In this document: piece after piece, positions 1 to 13,838 of the stretch
How the letters are laid out: every line of letters begins with the position of its first letter
How positions within the stretch are numbered: the stretch's first letter is position 1
Origin: an uncultured Candidatus Saccharibacteria bacterium
Lineage (GTDB): Bacteria > Patescibacteriota > Minisyncoccia > Phycocordibacterales > UBA9973
Reading direction: 5' to 3'
Length of the DNA stretch: 38,274 nt
NCBI GenBank assembly: GCA_964401625.1
Contig: CAYNYY010000006.1
Span: 1 to 38,274, forward strand
Made by a program: the position numbers and the translations under genes
The notes under the pieces: generated by a model
The model's input: only the letters and a program-made list of their open reading frames with translations
The model's database searches: none
Told to the model about the DNA's origin: nothing

Positions 1-48
1 ATTAACTTTCTTCATTTTCAAAATAGGTTCGTGCAAAGGTAAGTAATA

Positions 49-167
49 GTCCACACAAAGAAACATCTCCAAATAAATCGGTCGCGCGCTTGCGCGCTGT
101 TGTGATGATAGGATGAGAGAAGTCGGATTTGGTTTTGGAAACAACGGCGAATTCGGTGGGTGGGCAA
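49..167. repeat. Left arm of 119-bp inverted repeat flanking the recombinase (partner 1636-1754)
   Basis: Reverse complement of 49-167 matches 1636-1754 at 118/119 positions (mismatch 145/1658), checked by hand. Confidence 0.95.
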
Positions 168-223
168 TGGGTGCAAGAAATGAAATAGAAACAGATTCTT
201 CTTTTTTAATATCAAAAAACTAT

Positions 224-1816
224 ATGACAAACAAACCAAAATATTTTCTATATGCTCGCAAATCAACAGAAGATGATAATCATCAAATTATGAGTATTGA
301 AGCTCAACTTTTTGAGCTTCATGAATTTGCTCGTAAAGAAAATCTTGAAATTATTGAAGAATTTCAAGAGTCGAAAAGTGCAAAGAAACCAGGTCGTGAA
401 AAATTCAGCGAGATGATGGGGAAGATTGAAAATATGGATGGTGTAGGTATTCTCGCATGGCACCCTGACAGATTAGCGAGAAATAGTATTGATGGAGGGC
501 GTATCATCTACGCTGTAGACACGACCAAGGTCATTTCTTTACGCTTTCCGACATTTTGGTTTGAACCAACCCCGCAAGGGCTCTTTATGCTTCAAGTGGC
601 TTTCGGACAATCTAAATATTATTCTGATAATTTAAAACAAAATGTAGAGCGAGGCATCCGCCAAAAAGTTCGAAGAGGTGAGTGGTTGGTTAAAGGTCCC
701 CGTGGCTATATCAATAATCCAAAAACGAGGAATATTGAACCTGACCCTGTTCTTGCAAGAATTATTGTAAAAGCATATAAAGAATTCGCCACGGGGAAAT
801 ATACACTTCCAACTATGTCACAGTTTTTGGCGGAACACGGTGTTATTACGAAAAGTGGAAAGCCACTTGGTAATTCTTCTACTTCTGGTTTATTAACAAA
901 TAAAGCCTATCTTGGTTTTGTAAAACACAAAAGTGAATTTTACCCTGGAAGTTTTACGCCAATTATTTCTCCTACATTATTTGAAGCTGTTCAAAGGCGA
1001 TTGAAAGAACGAGCCAGACCTCGCAAAACAAAAGTTGGACACAATTTTCCTTTTACAGGATTATTCCGTTGTGGTGAGTGTGAAAGTATGATAACGGCTC
1101 AATGGGCGAAAGGTAATGGTGGGCGCTATCGTTATTATCGTTGTACAAAAAAGAAAGGAAAATGTTCACAACCATATTTGCGAGAAGATTTACTTGTTTT
1201 TCAATTAAAGGAACAGCTTCGAGGAATTACGCTTCCCGACGAGTGGATAAAGTATATGGAAGAAAAAACGAATGAATGGGAAAAAGAAACGAAAATCTCG
1301 TCGGAAAGCTATGTCGGGCGGATTAAATATAATGAGAGAGAGATACAGAAAAAACTCGATAATTTAATTACGATGTATCTAGACGGTCATATTCCAAAGG
1401 AAAATTATCTCACTAAGAAAAACGAATTATTAAAACAAAAAGTATCTCTCGCATATAAAATAGACTCCGCCCGAACAGAGAGAAATAATTGGGTCGAACC
1501 CTTGCGGGAATGGATTTTAGATATAAAAAAAGCCACGCAATTGATTTCAAGCGACAATTTTTTTGAAATTAAAGACTATTTCAAAAAAATTGGAACGAAC
1601 CAAACATTGCGTGACAAATCCGTTTCAATCTCATTTTGCCCACCCACCGAATTCGCCATTGTTTCCAAAACCAAATCCGACTTCTCTCATCCTATCATCA
1701 CAACAGCGCGCAAGCGCGCGACCGATTTATTTGGAGATGTTTCTTTGTGTGGACCCTACAGGGGTCGAACCTGCTACCTCCTCATTGCAAATGAGGCGCT
1801 CTACCAGATGAGCTAA
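224..1816 (+). CDS. Large serine recombinase (resolvase catalytic domain, recombinase domain, zinc ribbon, coiled coil)
   Basis: YARKST catalytic Ser motif, DRLAR motif, CGEC...YYRC...C zinc ribbon. ATG at 224 (MTNKPKYFLYARKS) preferred over ATG 113, which lies inside the repeat. The last 20 codons are antisense to tRNA-Ala. Confidence 0.92.
   Translation: MTNKPKYFLYARKSTEDDNHQIMSIEAQLFELHEFARKENLEIIEEFQESKSAKKPGREKFSEMMGKIENMDGVGILAWHPDRLARNSIDGGRIIYAVDTTKVISLRFPTFWFEPTPQGLFMLQVAFGQSKYYSDNLKQNVERGIRQKVRRGEWLVKGPRGYINNPKTRNIEPDPVLARIIVKAYKEFATGKYTLPTMSQFLAEHGVITKSGKPLGNSSTSGLLTNKAYLGFVKHKSEFYPGSFTPIISPTLFEAVQRRLKERARPRKTKVGHNFPFTGLFRCGECESMITAQWAKGNGGRYRYYRCTKKKGKCSQPYLREDLLVFQLKEQLRGITLPDEWIKYMEEKTNEWEKETKISSESYVGRIKYNEREIQKKLDNLITMYLDGHIPKENYLTKKNELLKQKVSLAYKIDSARTERNNWVEPLREWILDIKKATQLISSDNFFEIKDYFKKIGTNQTLRDKSVSISFCPPTEFAIVSKTKSDFSHPIITTARKRATDLFGDVSLCGPYRGRTCYLLIANEALYQMS
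1636..1754. repeat. Right arm of 119-bp inverted repeat, inside the recombinase 3' end and including the last 5 nt of tRNA-Ala
   Basis: Reverse complement of 49-167. Confidence 0.95.
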
Positions 1817-1822
1817 GGGCCC
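1750..1822 (-). tRNA. tRNA-Ala(TGC)
   Basis: GGGCCCT acceptor stem, CCTCA-TT-TGC-AA-TGAGG anticodon arm, GGTTCGAC T-loop; CCA not encoded. Confidence 0.96.
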
Positions 1823-1916
1823 ATATTCTTAATGGATGTTTACATATTACCTTATTTTATTTTTTTTGCAACATTTTTTATATTCGTAAGTTTTATTTTA
1901 AGGAAGGACTTGATAT

Positions 1917-1933
1917 TATACCCCATAGGGGTT
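1917..1933. promoter_or_regulatory. Putative CsoR-family operator
   Basis: TATACCCCATAGGGGTT, a C/G-tract palindrome just upstream of the csoR-like start; resembles known CsoR operators. Confidence 0.7.
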
Positions 1934-1945
1934 AATATATTAAAT

Positions 1946-2209
1946 ATGAATTATGATAAGAAAAAAATTATAAAAAGACTTAATATTATAAAAGGTCAGA
2001 TTAGAGGACTAGAAGAAATGATTAATAATGATACTTATTGTATTGATATCATTACTCAAAGTTCAGCCGTAAAACAAGCCTTATCTGGGGTTGAAGATAT
2101 TTTATTAAAAAATCATTTATCTAGTTGTGTTGTAGATCAAATAAAAGGTGGAGCTACTGATAAAACGGTTGAAGAAGTTCTCAAGGTTTATAAATTAAAA
2201 AGGAAGTAA
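1946..2209 (+). CDS. csoR: CsoR/RcnR-family metal-sensing repressor
   Basis: RLNIIKGQIRGL...YCIDI...NHLSSC with Cys-His-Cys ligand set; start at 1946 gives a typical length of about 87 aa. Confidence 0.88.
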   Translation: MNYDKKKIIKRLNIIKGQIRGLEEMINNDTYCIDIITQSSAVKQALSGVEDILLKNHLSSCVVDQIKGGATDKTVEEVLKVYKLKRK

Positions 2210-2296
2210 TATTTTCTCTTGTTATTACTAGGGTGGGGTATTTTCTGTTGGGAGTAAGTATACTATTTTAATGTAATTTGCTACAATTTATAGAGT

Positions 2297-3811
2297 ATGT
2301 CATTAAATAAATCTAATAAAATACAAATAATTAAATATGCACCTCCACCCACCGATTTGCCGATTCTAACAGGTTCCGATCCGAATGATGTAACTTTTCT
2401 TGGTAGAACAAACTATGTTGCAGCTTTAGAAGAAAAAAAATTTATTTTTGGTATTAAGCGTATAGATCGTAGACGGCATATGTACATCATAGGTAAATCT
2501 GGAGTGGGTAAATCAAAGTTACTAGAGCTAATGATTCGTCAAGATATTGCTTACGGTAGAGGTGTTTGTGTTATAGATCCTCACGGAGATCTTCTAGATG
2601 GTATTTTAGATTTTATTCCTAAAGAAAGAGTTGAAGATGTTTGTGTCATTGATCCTGGAGATGTTGATTTTCCGATATCTTTTAATCCGTTAGCAAATAT
2701 TGATCCTAATTTTAAACATCAACTTACTCAAGGATTAATAGAAGTTCTCCGTAAACAATTTGGAGCTAATTGGACTCCTCGTTTAGAGCACGTTTTTCGT
2801 TTTACAACTTTAGCTTTATTAGATTATCCTCACGCTACAATGCGTGGAATGATTTCAATGTTAACAGATAGAAATTATCGTCAAAAAGTTACTGAATATA
2901 TTGAAGATGATATGGTCAAGCGGTTCTGGGCAATTGAATTTGCTGATTGGTCTGAGAAATTTGATACAGATGCAATTATTCCTTTGGTTAATAAACTTGG
3001 ACAATTTTTATCTGATCCAATGCTTAGAAATATTTTTGGACAGGAAAAAAATAAAGTTGATATTGAAAGATTAATGAATGAACAAAAAATTTTATTGATT
3101 AATCTTTCTAAGGGTAAACTTGGAGAAGAAAACTCGTCTTTTTTCGGAGCGATGTTTTTAACGAAGATTAAACAAGCTGGTATGGCTCGAGCAAAAATAG
3201 ATCCGAAAGATCGTCAAGATTTTTATTTATATGTAGATGAATTTCATAATATAGTAACTGATACTTTTGAGAATATTCTCTCTGAATCTAGAAAATATGG
3301 AATTAATTTAGTCATTGCTCATCAATATATTGGACAGTTATTACCAAAAGTTCAACAAGCGGTGCTTGGGAATACTGGATCCATTATTTGTTTTAGGGTT
3401 GGTGGTGATGATGCATTAAAACTTAAACCAGAATTTGCCCCAATCTTTGATGTCAAAGATATGATCAATTTAGGTGTTGGTGAGTTTTATATAAAAATGA
3501 CAATTGACGGAGAAAGTTATGATCCATTTTCAGCCGAAACTTTACGAGTTTTACCGGCGACCCATAAATCTCTTCGCCAAGAAATTATGGAAGCCTCTAG
3601 AAGAAAATATGCAATTTCAGCTGGTGATGCTCAGAGATTGATTGCTGAGGAAGAAGCGACTATTATCAGATCAACTCAAGAAAAAGCTGCTATTACTGGT
3701 GGAACTAATCCATCATCAAATAAATCTGAAAATAAACTCAATGAATCTAATGAACCTAATTCTCAACAAAATCCTTCGAAAGAAGAAAAAGGAGGTGAGC
3801 CTTTAATTTAA
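2297..3811 (+). CDS. VirD4/TraD/HerA-like (type IV coupling protein-like) P-loop ATPase
   Basis: RRHMYIIGKSGVGKS Walker A, VIDPHGD, LYVDEFH Walker B, ESRKYG...AHQ motifs. Confidence 0.85.
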   Translation: MSLNKSNKIQIIKYAPPPTDLPILTGSDPNDVTFLGRTNYVAALEEKKFIFGIKRIDRRRHMYIIGKSGVGKSKLLELMIRQDIAYGRGVCVIDPHGDLLDGILDFIPKERVEDVCVIDPGDVDFPISFNPLANIDPNFKHQLTQGLIEVLRKQFGANWTPRLEHVFRFTTLALLDYPHATMRGMISMLTDRNYRQKVTEYIEDDMVKRFWAIEFADWSEKFDTDAIIPLVNKLGQFLSDPMLRNIFGQEKNKVDIERLMNEQKILLINLSKGKLGEENSSFFGAMFLTKIKQAGMARAKIDPKDRQDFYLYVDEFHNIVTDTFENILSESRKYGINLVIAHQYIGQLLPKVQQAVLGNTGSIICFRVGGDDALKLKPEFAPIFDVKDMINLGVGEFYIKMTIDGESYDPFSAETLRVLPATHKSLRQEIMEASRRKYAISAGDAQRLIAEEEATIIRSTQEKAAITGGTNPSSNKSENKLNESNEPNSQQNPSKEEKGGEPLI

Positions 3812-3930
3812 TTAAAAATTAAAAATTAAAAATAAAGATTAAAACAAAAATTTGTACAAATTGCAAAAATATTTTTAACAGAACTTAAACTGAATTAAAC
3901 TTTACATATCAAAATTAACGTTGTATAACA

Positions 3931-3949
3931 TTACCAGCCTTGCTGGGTT
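3931..3949 (+). repeat. REP-like hairpin TTACCAGCCTTGCTGGGTT, copy 1
   Basis: Identical 19-mer at 4634-4652 and inverted at about 36949-36967; CCAGC-CTT-GCTGG stem-loop. Confidence 0.88.
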
Positions 3950-3978
3950 TTATATATAAAAATTGCTACAATATAAAT

Positions 3979-4629
3979 ATGTCAATCAGAAAAGTTAATT
4001 TTATTAAAGGGGAATATTATCATATTTATAATCGAGGGAATAGTAAACAGAAAATTTTTAGAGATAAACAAGATTATGAATATTTCTTATATTTACTTTT
4101 TCTTTCCAACGAGAATAAAAAGTTTAAGATTTCTTTTTTAGAATCTGATGTTTATAAAACTAAAAGGGAGAGTCAAGTGGTGGCAATTGGAGCATATTGT
4201 TTAATGCCGAATCATTTTCATATTATTATAACTGAAATGAATAAAGAAGGTATAAGTAAATTTATGCATAAAGTTTCTAGTGGATATGCCCATTATTATA
4301 ATAAAAAATATAAAAGAACAGGATCTCTATTTGAAGGAAAATTTAAATCACAATATATAGATACCGATAACTATCTAAAATATTTATTTTCTTATATACA
4401 TTTAAATCCAATAAAATTAATTCAAAGAGATTGGAAAGAAAAAGGGATACAAAACAAACATAGAATTATAGATTTTTTAAAAAATTATAAATATTCAAGT
4501 TTCTTGGATTATTTAGGTATTGAGAGAAAAGAGAATTTTATTTTAAATAAAAAAGTATTTCCGAATTACTTTTTATCCACTAAAGATTTTATGAATGAAA
4601 TATTTGACTGGCTTAAAATAGAGTTGTAG
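3979..4629 (+). CDS. REP-associated tyrosine transposase (RAYT; Y1 HUH family)
   Basis: YYHIYNRG, YCLMPNHFH (HUH), GSLFEGKFKS, YIHLNP and YSS motifs; ATG at 3979. Confidence 0.9.
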   Translation: MSIRKVNFIKGEYYHIYNRGNSKQKIFRDKQDYEYFLYLLFLSNENKKFKISFLESDVYKTKRESQVVAIGAYCLMPNHFHIIITEMNKEGISKFMHKVSSGYAHYYNKKYKRTGSLFEGKFKSQYIDTDNYLKYLFSYIHLNPIKLIQRDWKEKGIQNKHRIIDFLKNYKYSSFLDYLGIERKENFILNKKVFPNYFLSTKDFMNEIFDWLKIEL

Positions 4630-13713: not shown

Positions 13714-13838
13714 TATTGCGGGCGATGGAGGAATCGTGAGTACACTTTCGGTCACAAGTATTTTTCTGTTGAAAAATCTCGCGACCCCGACTCGCACCGT
13801 CGTGCTCCGTCTTTCGATTCCTTATCTACCGCGTAATA
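13714..13838 (-). other. Structured element carrying a direct and an inverted copy of the tRNA-Trp 3' end
   Basis: 23-bp direct repeat 13714-13736 = 13877-13899; degenerate inverted copy at 13813-13838; two internal hairpins. Confidence 0.7.

Follow-up and report, generated by a model that had tools for sequence, protein, structure and literature searches.

The first 1,822 nucleotides of the window (the whole stretch of DNA that was analysed, 38,274 nucleotides long, which forms the start of contig C6) raise the question of why a serine recombinase gene should lie between two nearly identical, inverted copies of its own 3′ end, directly beside a tRNA gene. An earlier note, made from the sequence alone, had proposed a one-gene cassette that inverts itself and thereby exchanges the C-terminus of its recombinase. 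We find instead that window 1-1822 would be one end, the one next to the tRNA, of an integrated genomic island that encodes a large serine integrase, a structural reading to which we assign a probability of roughly 70%, and that the cassette's other junction lies on a second contig, C20. The left arm of the repeat together with nucleotides 1-48 (window 1-167) appears to be a second, intact, inverted attP-type site, and of the alternatives offered in the note, that of an intact spare attP copy fits the left arm best. The layout is a real and conserved variant of serine-integrase island that is apparently undescribed; literature titles and abstracts mentioned neither this integrase family nor a serine integrase gene with inverted copies of attP on both sides, with supplementary att-site catalogues falling outside that search. 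Several candidate functions can be named for a mirror-image attP layout conserved in ultra-small bacteria, the self-inverting switch among them.

The repeat, the integrase gene and the tRNA gene

The arms of the repeat were found again where the earlier note had placed them (Table 1), with 118 of 119 nucleotides complementary and a single mismatch (C at 145 versus A at 1658). Inward of the arms, the left copy carries an 11-nt insertion and then 20 nt of weaker similarity (17/20) that extends to 197/1616. A 119-nt repeat with one mismatch cannot be of chance origin in 38 kb, and the argument that a long inverted copy of an integrase 3′ end is unlike the trace of ordinary integration into a tRNA gene was upheld. 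The right arm, said to end in the last 5 nt of tRNA-Ala, indeed does so, the ARAGORN and Rfam bounds putting the shared stretch at 5-6 nt. This tRNA-Ala(TGC) is the sole tRNA-Ala of the assembly.

Table 1. Features at the start of the window, in window coordinates.
Feature	Position	Strand	Description
C flank	1..48	-	outer half of the putative upstream attP-type site; GGTTCG..GCAAAGG motif as apparent tRNA T-loop mimic
Core	49..55 (inverted: 1748-1754)	.	7 nt; first 5 nt are the tRNA-Ala 3′ end
Left arm	49..167	+	inverted copy of the int 3′ coding end; GC hairpin 84-97
int upstream region	168..223	+	AT-rich; 11-nt insertion versus right arm; weak repeat continuation 179-197
int	224..1816 (ORF 113/224-1816)	+	large serine recombinase (integrase), 530 aa; Resolvase, Recombinase and zinc-ribbon domains
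Right arm	1636..1754	+	int 3′ coding end; putative element-side half of attL; GC hairpin 1706-1719; mismatch at 1658
tRNA-Ala(TGC)	1749-1822 (ARAGORN) or 1750-1822 (Rfam, 64.4 bits)	-	intact; putative attB-side half of attL
Promoter-like site upstream of tRNA-Ala	1915..1943	-	10/12 consensus matches; consensus match only

The int product carries a PF00239 resolvase-type catalytic domain at residues 8-154 (E = 1.6e-21) together with matches to PF07508 (3.5e-12) and PF13408 (1.8e-12), the Recombinase and zinc-ribbon domains. Its YARKST motif is unchanged across 22 aligned relatives, and one serine of the catalytic domain is assigned as the nucleophile, presumably correctly. In a model of P0008, an 81%-identical homologue, long helices (339-441) follow the ribbon strands at a pLDDT of about 70-80. 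By size and domains the protein is a large serine recombinase and not a small one of the Hin/Gin type with a C-terminal HTH. Its last 20 codons are read antisense through tRNA-Ala, giving the current ending ...SLCG-PYRGRTCYLLIANEALYQMS before the stop. When this frame is carried on out of the arm and into 1-48, read as the reverse complement, the left copy gives ...SLCG-LLLTFARTYFENEES, and both tails, including the TAA at 4-2, read as the note had claimed.

Transcription from the promoter-like site upstream of tRNA-Ala would enter int antisense. We infer that the promoter of int itself is probably in the AT-rich region upstream of the gene; a consensus scan called no promoter between the left arm and the int start codon. 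The complementarity of the arms could instead act in RNA, a transcript begun upstream of the left arm pairing its 5′ end with its 3′ coding end in a 119-bp duplex that silences int, and selection for pairing would be in keeping with arms that are complementary throughout. Among the 5 listed runs, 0 are recorded as RNA. We consider this very improbable, however, as the conserved insertion and the AT-rich stretch before the start codon suggest a promoter downstream of the arm, and the arm hairpin would stop incoming transcripts. Folding of the tRNA plus the arm gave z = -1.1, and the consensus fold of the GC-rich X region consists of a short hairpin alone (-2.7 kcal/mol). An Rfam scan (C20:2537-5591 and window 1-3400, E ≤ 0.1) returned the tRNA, one chance microRNA match and nothing else, leaving the X region without a match.

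Island junctions and the assembly

Window 1-55 is identical to C20:4037-4091, after which C20 runs on into a different sequence, D. The 7-nt core is common to three junctions, namely C flank-core-arm in the window, tRNA-core-arm, and C flank-core-D on C20. We identify the tRNA-Ala/core/right-arm junction as the putative attL and the C flank/core/D junction on C20 as the putative attR, with the crossover presumably falling within the core. To the left of the att site, C20 encodes an AAA_15/AAA_21 ATPase, a trypsin-like protease and an HTH protein, a foreign-looking content with 22-26% GC in the putative cargo part versus about 30% genome-wide. This cargo and the upstream attP copy would be connected through the 55-nt overlap, which has exactly the assembler word length; the connection is drawn from that overlap and from relatives.

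An empty attB (tRNA-Ala/core/D) was found in runs X2 and X3, where a contig at a depth of about 30 joins 1748-1823 to the reverse complement of D; these are Logan assembled contigs of other samples, not reads, and the two runs are possibly one data set filed twice. Most of int is uncovered in X2/X3, with just short stretches of relatives' conserved sequence matched. Junctions of attP form, in which int reads into the C flank, occur in relatives (L110, L195 and L097), and the four site types of an attB + attP to attL + attR reaction would thus all be represented. The locus has further traits of a tRNA-gene island: its site is a tRNA 3′ end, the tRNA is regenerated, int is adjacent, and the site is empty elsewhere. 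The direct repeat at the island is the 7-nt core only, and the enzyme is a serine, not a tyrosine, recombinase. The genome holds one copy of the element, whose boundaries are two occurrences of the core, one at the tRNA and one on C20. An insertion sequence or transposon with terminal inverted repeats was rejected, since conserved element sequence (C and X) goes on beyond the left arm and there is one copy per genome.

Because the window begins contig C6, worry over a contig-end artefact was justified, and the overlap of 1-55 with another contig by the exact assembler word length adds to it. Nevertheless, an assembly fold-back or chimera, in which the left arm would be absent from the DNA, can for practical purposes be set aside. 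The independent X1 assembly holds a 517-nt contig identical to window 49-565 (zero differences), the two arms differ by one base, and the left copy has its insertion followed by a diverged continuation. The same layout, moreover, recurs in relatives, in contigs of up to 995 kb that include one-contig genomes. The fold-back that the earlier note had named as fatal to its proposal is contradicted by this contig and by the relatives' repeats. The X1 contigs comprise the C flank-core-D junction, 49-565 and 1725-3000+. These Logan contigs leave cover holes (for example 1601-1700), and their depth is 3.5-6.7 over int versus 11.4 for the flank. Assembled contigs cannot reveal the orientation across a 119-nt repeat.

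The mirrored layout in relatives

Among relatives (the best 80 of about 550 or more per collection), we found an inverted repeat of at least 60 matched nt in 149 of 177 non-identical homologous loci, so the upstream inverted copy of the 3′ end, on whose conservation the switch proposal had been made to depend, is indeed conserved. A homologue at E ≤ 1e-50 was present in 60 of 151 sampled genomes of the order. Both arms were clear of locus ends in 72 of the first 109 loci, with a median length of 132.5 nt and a median identity of 0.979, and the right arm adjoined an ARAGORN tRNA in 69 of the 109 (Glu 25, Ala 11, Arg 10, Ser 9, Ile 6, and others). Mismatch between arms was 1-3%, even across the first 100 nt (66 loci); the arms are nearly identical within a locus, yet differ between loci. 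Identity is not obligatory, as L063, L087 and L018 have left and right arms of different types.

An inverted second X-C copy stands at the far island end in L030 (92/92), L100 (330/330), L112/L113 (201/212), L029, L020 and L092. In L100 and L112, the far-end C flank differs from the upstream C flank. L110 and L195 have an un-integrated layout with a C-type flank at both sides, and the existence of such copies indicates that excision or transfer happens. Inspection of L110, L097, L016 and L050 found no circular closure and no further repeat. A 23-nt direct repeat in L016 is the arm/tRNA-Glu junction behind an NN gap, in a scaffold of ambiguous layout. Measured from the far-end copy to int, the smallest islands span about 0.3 kb (L020) and about 1.1 kb (L030), and since they consist of int and little else, they leave no evident room for a directionality-factor gene.

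We then compared the two half-sites through the position of a CGAAC motif, which could be scored in 48 of 52 loci, the remaining 4 being unscorable. In the C flank the motif lay at a greater distance from the core than it did in the tRNA, by 6 nt in 40 loci and by 5 nt in 8, and at the present locus the tRNA T-arm motif is 5-6 bp nearer the core than the C-flank motif. According to a study of large serine integrases (PMC11722253), the zinc-ribbon-domain motif is offset between attP and attB by 5 bp, or 4 bp in SPbeta, and the 5-6 nt shift is of this kind. The upstream copy appears to hold both half-sites with attP-type spacing, the tRNA side having spacing of the attB type.

Alignment of homologues showed that the tail encoded upstream is conserved as well. 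An ARTYF-like tail is in frame in 49 of 51 distinct left flanks of relatives, and the third position of its codons is the most variable (entropy 1.15 versus 0.85 and 0.69). It is the real C-terminus of int in tRNA-free copies (L016, L050, L064, L097, L104, P0006 and P0008) and in L193, and we read this "alternative" tail as the native C-terminus of the integrase. The left arm touches a contig end in L016, L050, L064, L097 and L104, where the native tail may partly reflect wrong assembler traversal. Because the crossover core would lie within int about 20 codons before the stop, integration would exchange the native tail (...FARTYFE.. up to its stop) for antisense-tRNA residues. Integrated tails shrink to 1-2 residues in L024, L030 and L012, suggesting that the tail is dispensable. 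In the model of P0008, a native-tail homologue (22-row alignment), mean pLDDT was 65.5 and the last ~55 residues were below 50.

Orientation of int and possible roles of the second copy

Inversion between the arms was expected to place int co-directional with the tRNA and to give it the native tail, and L193 has exactly this flipped layout, with tRNA-Ala, the arm and then int in the direction of the tRNA and ending in the native tail. Across genomes, int reads into the tRNA in at least 103 loci versus 1 flipped, perhaps 2 with L018. In L018, two tRNA-Glu ends in inverted orientation enclose int, a layout that depends on 16 nt at the start of a contig and in which the arms differ; a search of its genome (G144) for the left arm found no second copy. 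Were the two attP copies used equally well, flipped integrations would be expected often; 1-2 were seen against at least 103.

A frequent, reversible phase switch, driven by integrase-catalysed inversion of the stretch between the arms and setting both int expression (sense or antisense to the tRNA promoter) and the C-terminus, is in our view distinctly unlikely. The inverted sites flank the recombinase gene in the right geometry, the other tail is in frame and conserved with codon position 3 the most variable, the flipped state exists in nature, and many contigs break at the arms. Such breaks, however, are expected of any repeat longer than the assembler word size, the tail region is modelled at pLDDT < 50, and a tail that can be cut to 1-2 residues seems dispensable. 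Against it, too, stand the one-sided distribution of orientations and the nature of the sites, which would be of attP and attL type, a pair that is non-permitted for the large serine integrases studied (PMC11722253). The same study regards attP pairs as probably blocked even once they are synapsed (PMC11722253).

We tentatively prefer the view that the spare copy permits a rare change of orientation, with return to the native-tail form co-directional with the tRNA. On the structural reading of the island, gene conversion or recombination between the arms would hold them identical, and the excised circle would carry int flanked by two inverted attP sites. The module could come to stand next to a tRNA in either orientation through a RecA-type flip between the arms or, alternatively, through excision and re-integration by way of the other attP copy, and the form reading into the tRNA would be the stable, commonly seen one. 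That the spare copy has either a regulatory or insulating role or an accessory role in excision is nearly as likely.

As a regulatory or insulating element, the upstream copy would not be a recombination substrate at all; integrase bound there, perhaps in a synapse with the other site, would regulate int, and the GC hairpins of the arms would keep transcription from the tRNA or the cargo out of the int segment. Each arm has a conserved GC hairpin 35-55 nt from the core, followed by a U-rich stretch when read inwards, and in nearly every locus 20-120 nt separate the end of the left arm from the start codon downstream. The non-recombining attP-attP tetramers formed by the SPbeta integrase (PMC11722253) are consistent with such a role. 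Yet a binding site plus a terminator would take up about 60 nt and require no identity to the coding arm, whereas the arms agree over about 130 nt at about 98% identity, with mismatches spread evenly. The arm hairpins did not pass a strict terminator scan, and the core, about 170 nt from the start codon, is far away for an operator. We regard this role as unlikely.

It is improbable that the spare attP serves as an accessory site, either for excision without a directionality factor, the free coiled-coil arms of a third site unlocking attL/attR, or for two-site cassette exchange between two tRNA genes. The lack of evident room for a directionality-factor gene in L020 and L030, the un-integrated copies, with the excision or transfer that they indicate, and the two inverted tRNA-Glu ends around int in L018 argue for it. 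But the mechanism is without known precedent, the L018 layout depends on 16 nt at the start of a contig and its arms differ, and host-encoded factors or control by the tail swap are equally possible. The mirrored attP might also be a built-in directionality or orientation device of integrase-only mini-islands, or a third site that licenses excision without a directionality factor, which we hold to be quite unlikely. The toggle version would rest on the attP inside int and the intact inverted copy beside it. Its tRNA-locked form would have the foreign tail and lie antisense to the tRNA promoter, and its autonomous form would have the native tail and an intact attP.

We also considered a hairpin attP in single-stranded DNA and rejected it by reasoning only, as a serine recombinase that cuts double strands would leave hairpin-capped chromosome ends.

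Among known systems, large serine integrases (phiC31, Bxb1, A118/LI and SPbeta SprA, as well as TnpX, TndX and CcrAB) share the resolvase, recombinase, zinc-ribbon and long-helix architecture, use a short core and integrate conservatively; here attB, attL and attR each appear as sequence junctions. They also share the shift of the outer motif (PMC11722253), which is 5-6 bp further out on the element side here. The present family differs from them in targeting the 3′ ends of many different tRNA genes, with the universal T-loop as host-side motif; in having attP inside the integrase ORF; in the second intact, inverted attP that flanks the gene with about 130 nt of identity; and in that a directionality factor is not evident in the smallest islands. 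Hin/Gin/Cin/Pin cassettes likewise consist of a serine recombinase gene between inverted sites, and a flip would alter expression; the hin gene is carried within the H segment, flanked by hixL and hixR, and Hin-type enzymes are about 190 aa long and use 26-bp sites and an enhancer plus Fis. Here, in contrast, a 530-aa integrase stands between two sites of different types (attP and attL) whose outer halves are the C flank and the tRNA, and one orientation dominates. The yeast 2-micron plasmid carries its FLP gene between 599-bp inverted repeats that hold FRT, FLP being a tyrosine recombinase and the plasmid a replicating one. The inferred excised circle would resemble it in that int and cargo segments would be split by a large inverted repeat (X + C + core + arm), each copy of which would hold the recombinase's site. 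Unlike the 2-micron case, the element has no visible replication genes, and a closed circular contig was not observed.

Integration that changes a gene product through an attP inside the gene is familiar from SSV1/pTN3-type archaeal integrases and from integration-dependent immunity in mycobacteriophages, where tyrosine integrases or repressors are concerned and the gene is split or a degradation tag is lost. As in those cases, integration would cut the element's own gene at attP, and the free and integrated proteins would differ. Here, however, only the last 15-20 residues would be exchanged, and a mirror copy of the lost end is kept beside the gene. tRNA-gene islands of the Islander/TIGER type and tycheposons similarly use a tRNA 3′ end, with int adjacent, the tRNA regenerated and cargo distal. 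Such islands usually come from tyrosine integrases and leave a longer direct repeat of the tRNA end (PMC4383910), and a few tycheposons have a large serine recombinase (10.1101/2020.12.28.424599). Here the core is 7 nt, and the repeat that stands out is an inverted one within the island.

Large serine integrases are leading tools for large DNA insertion, and this family appears to read the universal tRNA T-loop on the host side, with a mimic shifted by half a turn on the element side. Its re-targeting to at least ten tRNA types provides a natural series for studies of specificity and direction, and the mirrored attP, the crossover in int and the apparent lack of a directionality factor pose a testable question about excision in minimal elements. 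Either device, toggle or third-site excision, would if true be a novel means by which a serine integrase sets its own direction. The islands are frequent in Patescibacteria and carry defence-like cargo, and so bear on gene exchange in very small genomes. The repeats also explain the recurrent contig breaks beside tRNA genes in these genome bins.

The integrase cassette and its relatives

The recombinase gene int lies near the start of the window, the first 38,274 bases of contig C6 from a 536-kb genome (G000; 29 contigs, 98% complete), and its product is, as judged from domains and the logic of its sites, a large serine integrase. The earlier note had described a 119-nt inverted repeat with one mismatch bracketing this gene, a right arm made of the int 3' coding end and the end of tRNA-Ala, a current tail read antisense through the tRNA and an alternative tail in the same frame, and each of these was recovered. 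A script put the sole mismatch between the arms at 145/1658, and the position of tRNA-Ala places its last 5-6 nt within the right arm. The protein ends in 20 residues read antisense through the tRNA, and if the int frame is carried on past the arm along the minus strand of 1-48, the tail becomes LLLTFARTYFENEES*, stopping at 4-2. By the same script, an 11-nt insertion past the left arm is followed by 20 more nt of arm similarity, 17 of them matching.

Coordinates of features in the window and on other contigs of the same genome
Feature	Location	Strand	Description
Left arm	49-167		119 nt; 99% complementary to right arm (repeat finder)
Right arm	1636-1754		119 nt
int	224-1816		530 aa; Resolvase, Recombinase and zinc-ribbon domains
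tRNA-Ala(TGC)	1749/1750-1822	minus	
Genes beyond tRNA-Ala	1946-4626		CsoR-like metal-sensing repressor; 504-aa TraG/VirD4/HerA-like ATPase; IS200-like Y1 transposase homologue
Second Y1 homologue	C20:7672-8331		
Probable island cargo	C20:1-3276		AAA_15/AAA_21 ATPase; trypsin-like protease; HTH protein; GC 22-26%
X	C20:3277-4036		760 nt, non-coding; ~43-45% GC in a 30% GC genome; between cargo and C flank
~62-nt motif, in window	13751-13812	minus	next to tRNA-Trp
~62-nt motif, in island	C20:3516-3577		inside X
~62-nt motif, contig C10	C10:6754-6815		

Of 8,000 candidates scored against the int protein, 6,728 were related at E <= 0.001; within the same order, 60 of the 151 genomes sampled had a match at E <= 1e-50. 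We analysed 189 loci (29 from same-order genomes, the best 80 from JGI metagenomes and the best 80 from named Patescibacteria genome records), 177 of them with non-identical genes. The upstream inverted copy of the gene's 3' end is conserved across these homologues, with a repeat of at least 60 matched nt in 149 of the 177. Most of the other 28 are truncated by a contig end; also among the 28 are L018 (see below), L103, whose 59/61 repeat falls just short of the threshold, and L063 and L087, in which upstream arm and gene 3' end belong to different target types (in one example, Ser-type for the arm and Ile-tRNA for the junction). At L052, about 1.6 kb is inserted between left arm and gene. For the 72 of the first 109 loci with both arms clear of the locus ends, median repeat length was 132.5 nt and median identity 0.979 (at least 98% identical in 36), compared with merely 41-83% identity between the proteins of different loci. 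Arm-versus-arm mismatch was 1-3% and uniform along the first 100 nt (66 loci), indicating that the arms are homogenised, or selected as a pair, along their full length.

Contig ends in this assembly share 55-nt overlaps, and window 1-55 is identical to C20:4037-4091, internal to an 8.7-kb contig whose sequence differs beyond, so an assembly fold-back was plausible beforehand. It is ruled out by a 517-nt contig from a separate assembly of run X1 (Logan contigs), which equals window 49-565 with zero differences and crosses from the left arm into the int 5' region, and by the layout being a family trait, found also in 400-995 kb contigs and one-contig genomes. Contigs in the genome bins of these loci very often start or end at either arm, and many carry the integrase alone on 1.7-2.7 kb; the arm repeat systematically breaks assemblies next to tRNA genes in Patescibacteria.

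Attachment sites and the probable island structure

Across the family, the right arm adjoins an opposite-strand tRNA gene and overlaps its last 4-7 nt. ARAGORN placed a tRNA there in 69 of the first 109 loci (Glu 25, Ala 11, Arg 10, Ser 9, Ile 6, Val, Lys and Gln 2 each, Met and Tyr 1 each). The left arm adjoins a conserved flank, C, containing GGTTCG.GCAAAGG. C has its CGAAC at a greater distance from the arm than the tRNA has its T-loop copy, the difference being 6 nt in 40 loci and 5 nt in 8 (48 of 52 loci scored, 4 unscorable). According to PMC11722253, the motif bound by the zinc-ribbon domain of large serine integrases sits closer to the centre in attB than in attP, by 5 bp or, in SPbeta, by 4 bp. 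The CGAAC offset is this published difference between attP-type and attB-type half-sites, such that tRNA, core and arm are composed as an attL and C, core and arm as a complete attP.

A 7-nt core is common to the tRNA-core-arm junction (1748-1754), the C-core-arm junction (window 1-60) and a C-core-D junction on C20, where D is the sequence past the core. The empty attB, tRNA-core-D, is present in runs X2 and X3, which resemble one data set filed twice, as a contig that leads from the tRNA-Ala 5' end across the core and on into reverse-complemented D (2,709 nt, or 1,749 nt in X3; depth ~30). These runs cover window 1794-3000 at the same depth with one difference and leave most of int uncovered, apart from short stretches of relatives' conserved sequence. 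X1 contigs carry C-core-D (depth 6.1), 49-565 (6.7) and 1725-3000+ (11.4). The four junctions and the coverage in both data sets indicate that the int cassette with X and C has been inserted between tRNA-Ala and D. D and the remainder of C20 (MatE, D-Ala-D-Ala ligase) are chromosomal; the probable cargo also has a weak Abi_alpha match, under the family cut-off. The target is the single tRNA-Ala among 39 tRNAs found; the element provides its last 5 nt and so leaves it intact.

In several relatives the far island end is visible as an inverted X-C(-core) copy, 0.3-2.8 kb left of the upstream copy, matching at 92/92 (L030), 330/330 (L100) and 201/212 (L112/L113), more weakly in L029 and L020, and truncated at the locus edge in L092. 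The general order, in window orientation, is D', core'-C2'-X2', cargo, X1-C1-core-arm, int, arm'-core', tRNA'. Contig C6 stops at C because C1 and C2 of this genome are identical over at least 55 nt. We favour, at a probability of roughly 70%, the reading that this is the integrated island of a serine integrase, its attP within int and a mirrored attP conserved upstream of the gene. The island's excised circle would hold int between two inverted attP regions with cargo opposite; we saw no closed circle.

Orientation, C-terminal tails and the role of the upstream copy

Where flanks could be read, 89 loci pair a left C-type flank with a right-hand tRNA, 14 more combine a tRNA or tRNA-like right flank with an atypical left flank, and in a further 6 the left flank is short. 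A single locus, L193, has the flipped layout, with tRNA-Ala (2285-2360) on the int strand followed by an arm, int with the native, C-flank-encoded tail VIISFARTFFERE*, an arm and C'. Its arms diverge from position 17 on (130/144), so the orientation is set by sequence and not by the assembler's choice, and an Nramp gene upstream makes the flipped copy chromosomal. The flipped state is viable but rare. We regard the frequent, integrase-driven phase switch of the earlier note as quite unlikely. The flipped state could arise from a flip between the arms or from integration via the upstream attP. By PMC11722253, attP x attL is not recombined by the large serine integrases studied, and even attP pairs that have synapsed are believed to stay inactive, making RecA-type exchange over ~130 nt of identity the more conservative flip route. 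L018 (G144:C1:1-3112, in another genome) has int between two inverted tRNA-Glu 3' ends, the left one just 16 nt at the contig start, with arms of different types, and may be a two-site exchange product or a recombinant between two islands.

Read in the int frame, 49 of 51 distinct left flanks encode [IL]L.FAR[TN][YFH]FE with a stop a few codons on. Variability peaks at the third codon position (entropy 1.15 versus 0.85 and 0.69), a coding signal that is suggestive rather than proof because the motif partly doubles as a DNA site (CGAAC; TTCGAA). The ARTYF-like tail proposed earlier is a real C-terminus in the homologous proteins P0006 and P0008 (2 of 35 sequences read) and in L193; it also ends the protein in L016, L050, L064, L097 and L104, where assembler mis-traversal of the repeat is possible because the left arm touches the contig end. 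In L110 and L195, int runs into a variant C flank, yielding a different tail, and C-type flanks on both sides give the un-integrated layout. Tails of integrated copies differ by tRNA and are 1-2 residues at their shortest. The arm and C together encode exactly the final ~55 residues of P0008, which score below pLDDT 50 in a structure model.

For the upstream copy of the mirrored-attP island, our leading candidate function, though at less than even odds, is a rare change of orientation between a tRNA-locked and a native form; these odds overlap partly with those of the frequent phase switch, both involving flipping. A regulatory or insulating role, to which an inward-facing GC hairpin in each arm would lend itself, appears unlikely. 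An accessory part in excision or cassette exchange, of which L018 may be a product, seems improbable.

The element has the usual function of a tRNA-gene island but is unusual in its T-loop-reading serine enzyme, a crossover inside int and an internal attP in mirror image. It resembles Hin-type cassettes and the 2-micron plasmid in layout and is not related to them. No description of an integrase gene between mirrored attP sites turned up among the titles and abstracts covered by the literature search. Such an island is of solid interest for site-specific recombination and for the mobile DNA of Patescibacteria, although a one-gene switch, if demonstrated, would have been more striking.

Neighbouring repeats and a second tRNA-linked junction

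The two Y1 homologues would flank the attB region in the empty-site chromosome. Near the TraG-like gene, the 59-nt stretch at window 2444-2502 is a dispersed short repeat, recurring ~2.3 kb onward in the same run contig (557-nt step back, 2300 letters between). X matched nothing in Rfam; relatives conserve its last ~130 nt, with a covarying short hairpin just past the native-tail stop. The three copies of the ~62-nt motif are 77-85% identical. Elsewhere in the genome, C25:1-60 (L118) carries a second C-type motif, then a tRNA-Ser-like core and unrelated sequence, an attR-like junction with no integrase nearby, and contig C10 (C10:1-88) starts exactly at the 3' end of tRNA-Ser(GCT). These two contig starts suggest a second island or remnant at tRNA-Ser, its middle absent from the genome bin.
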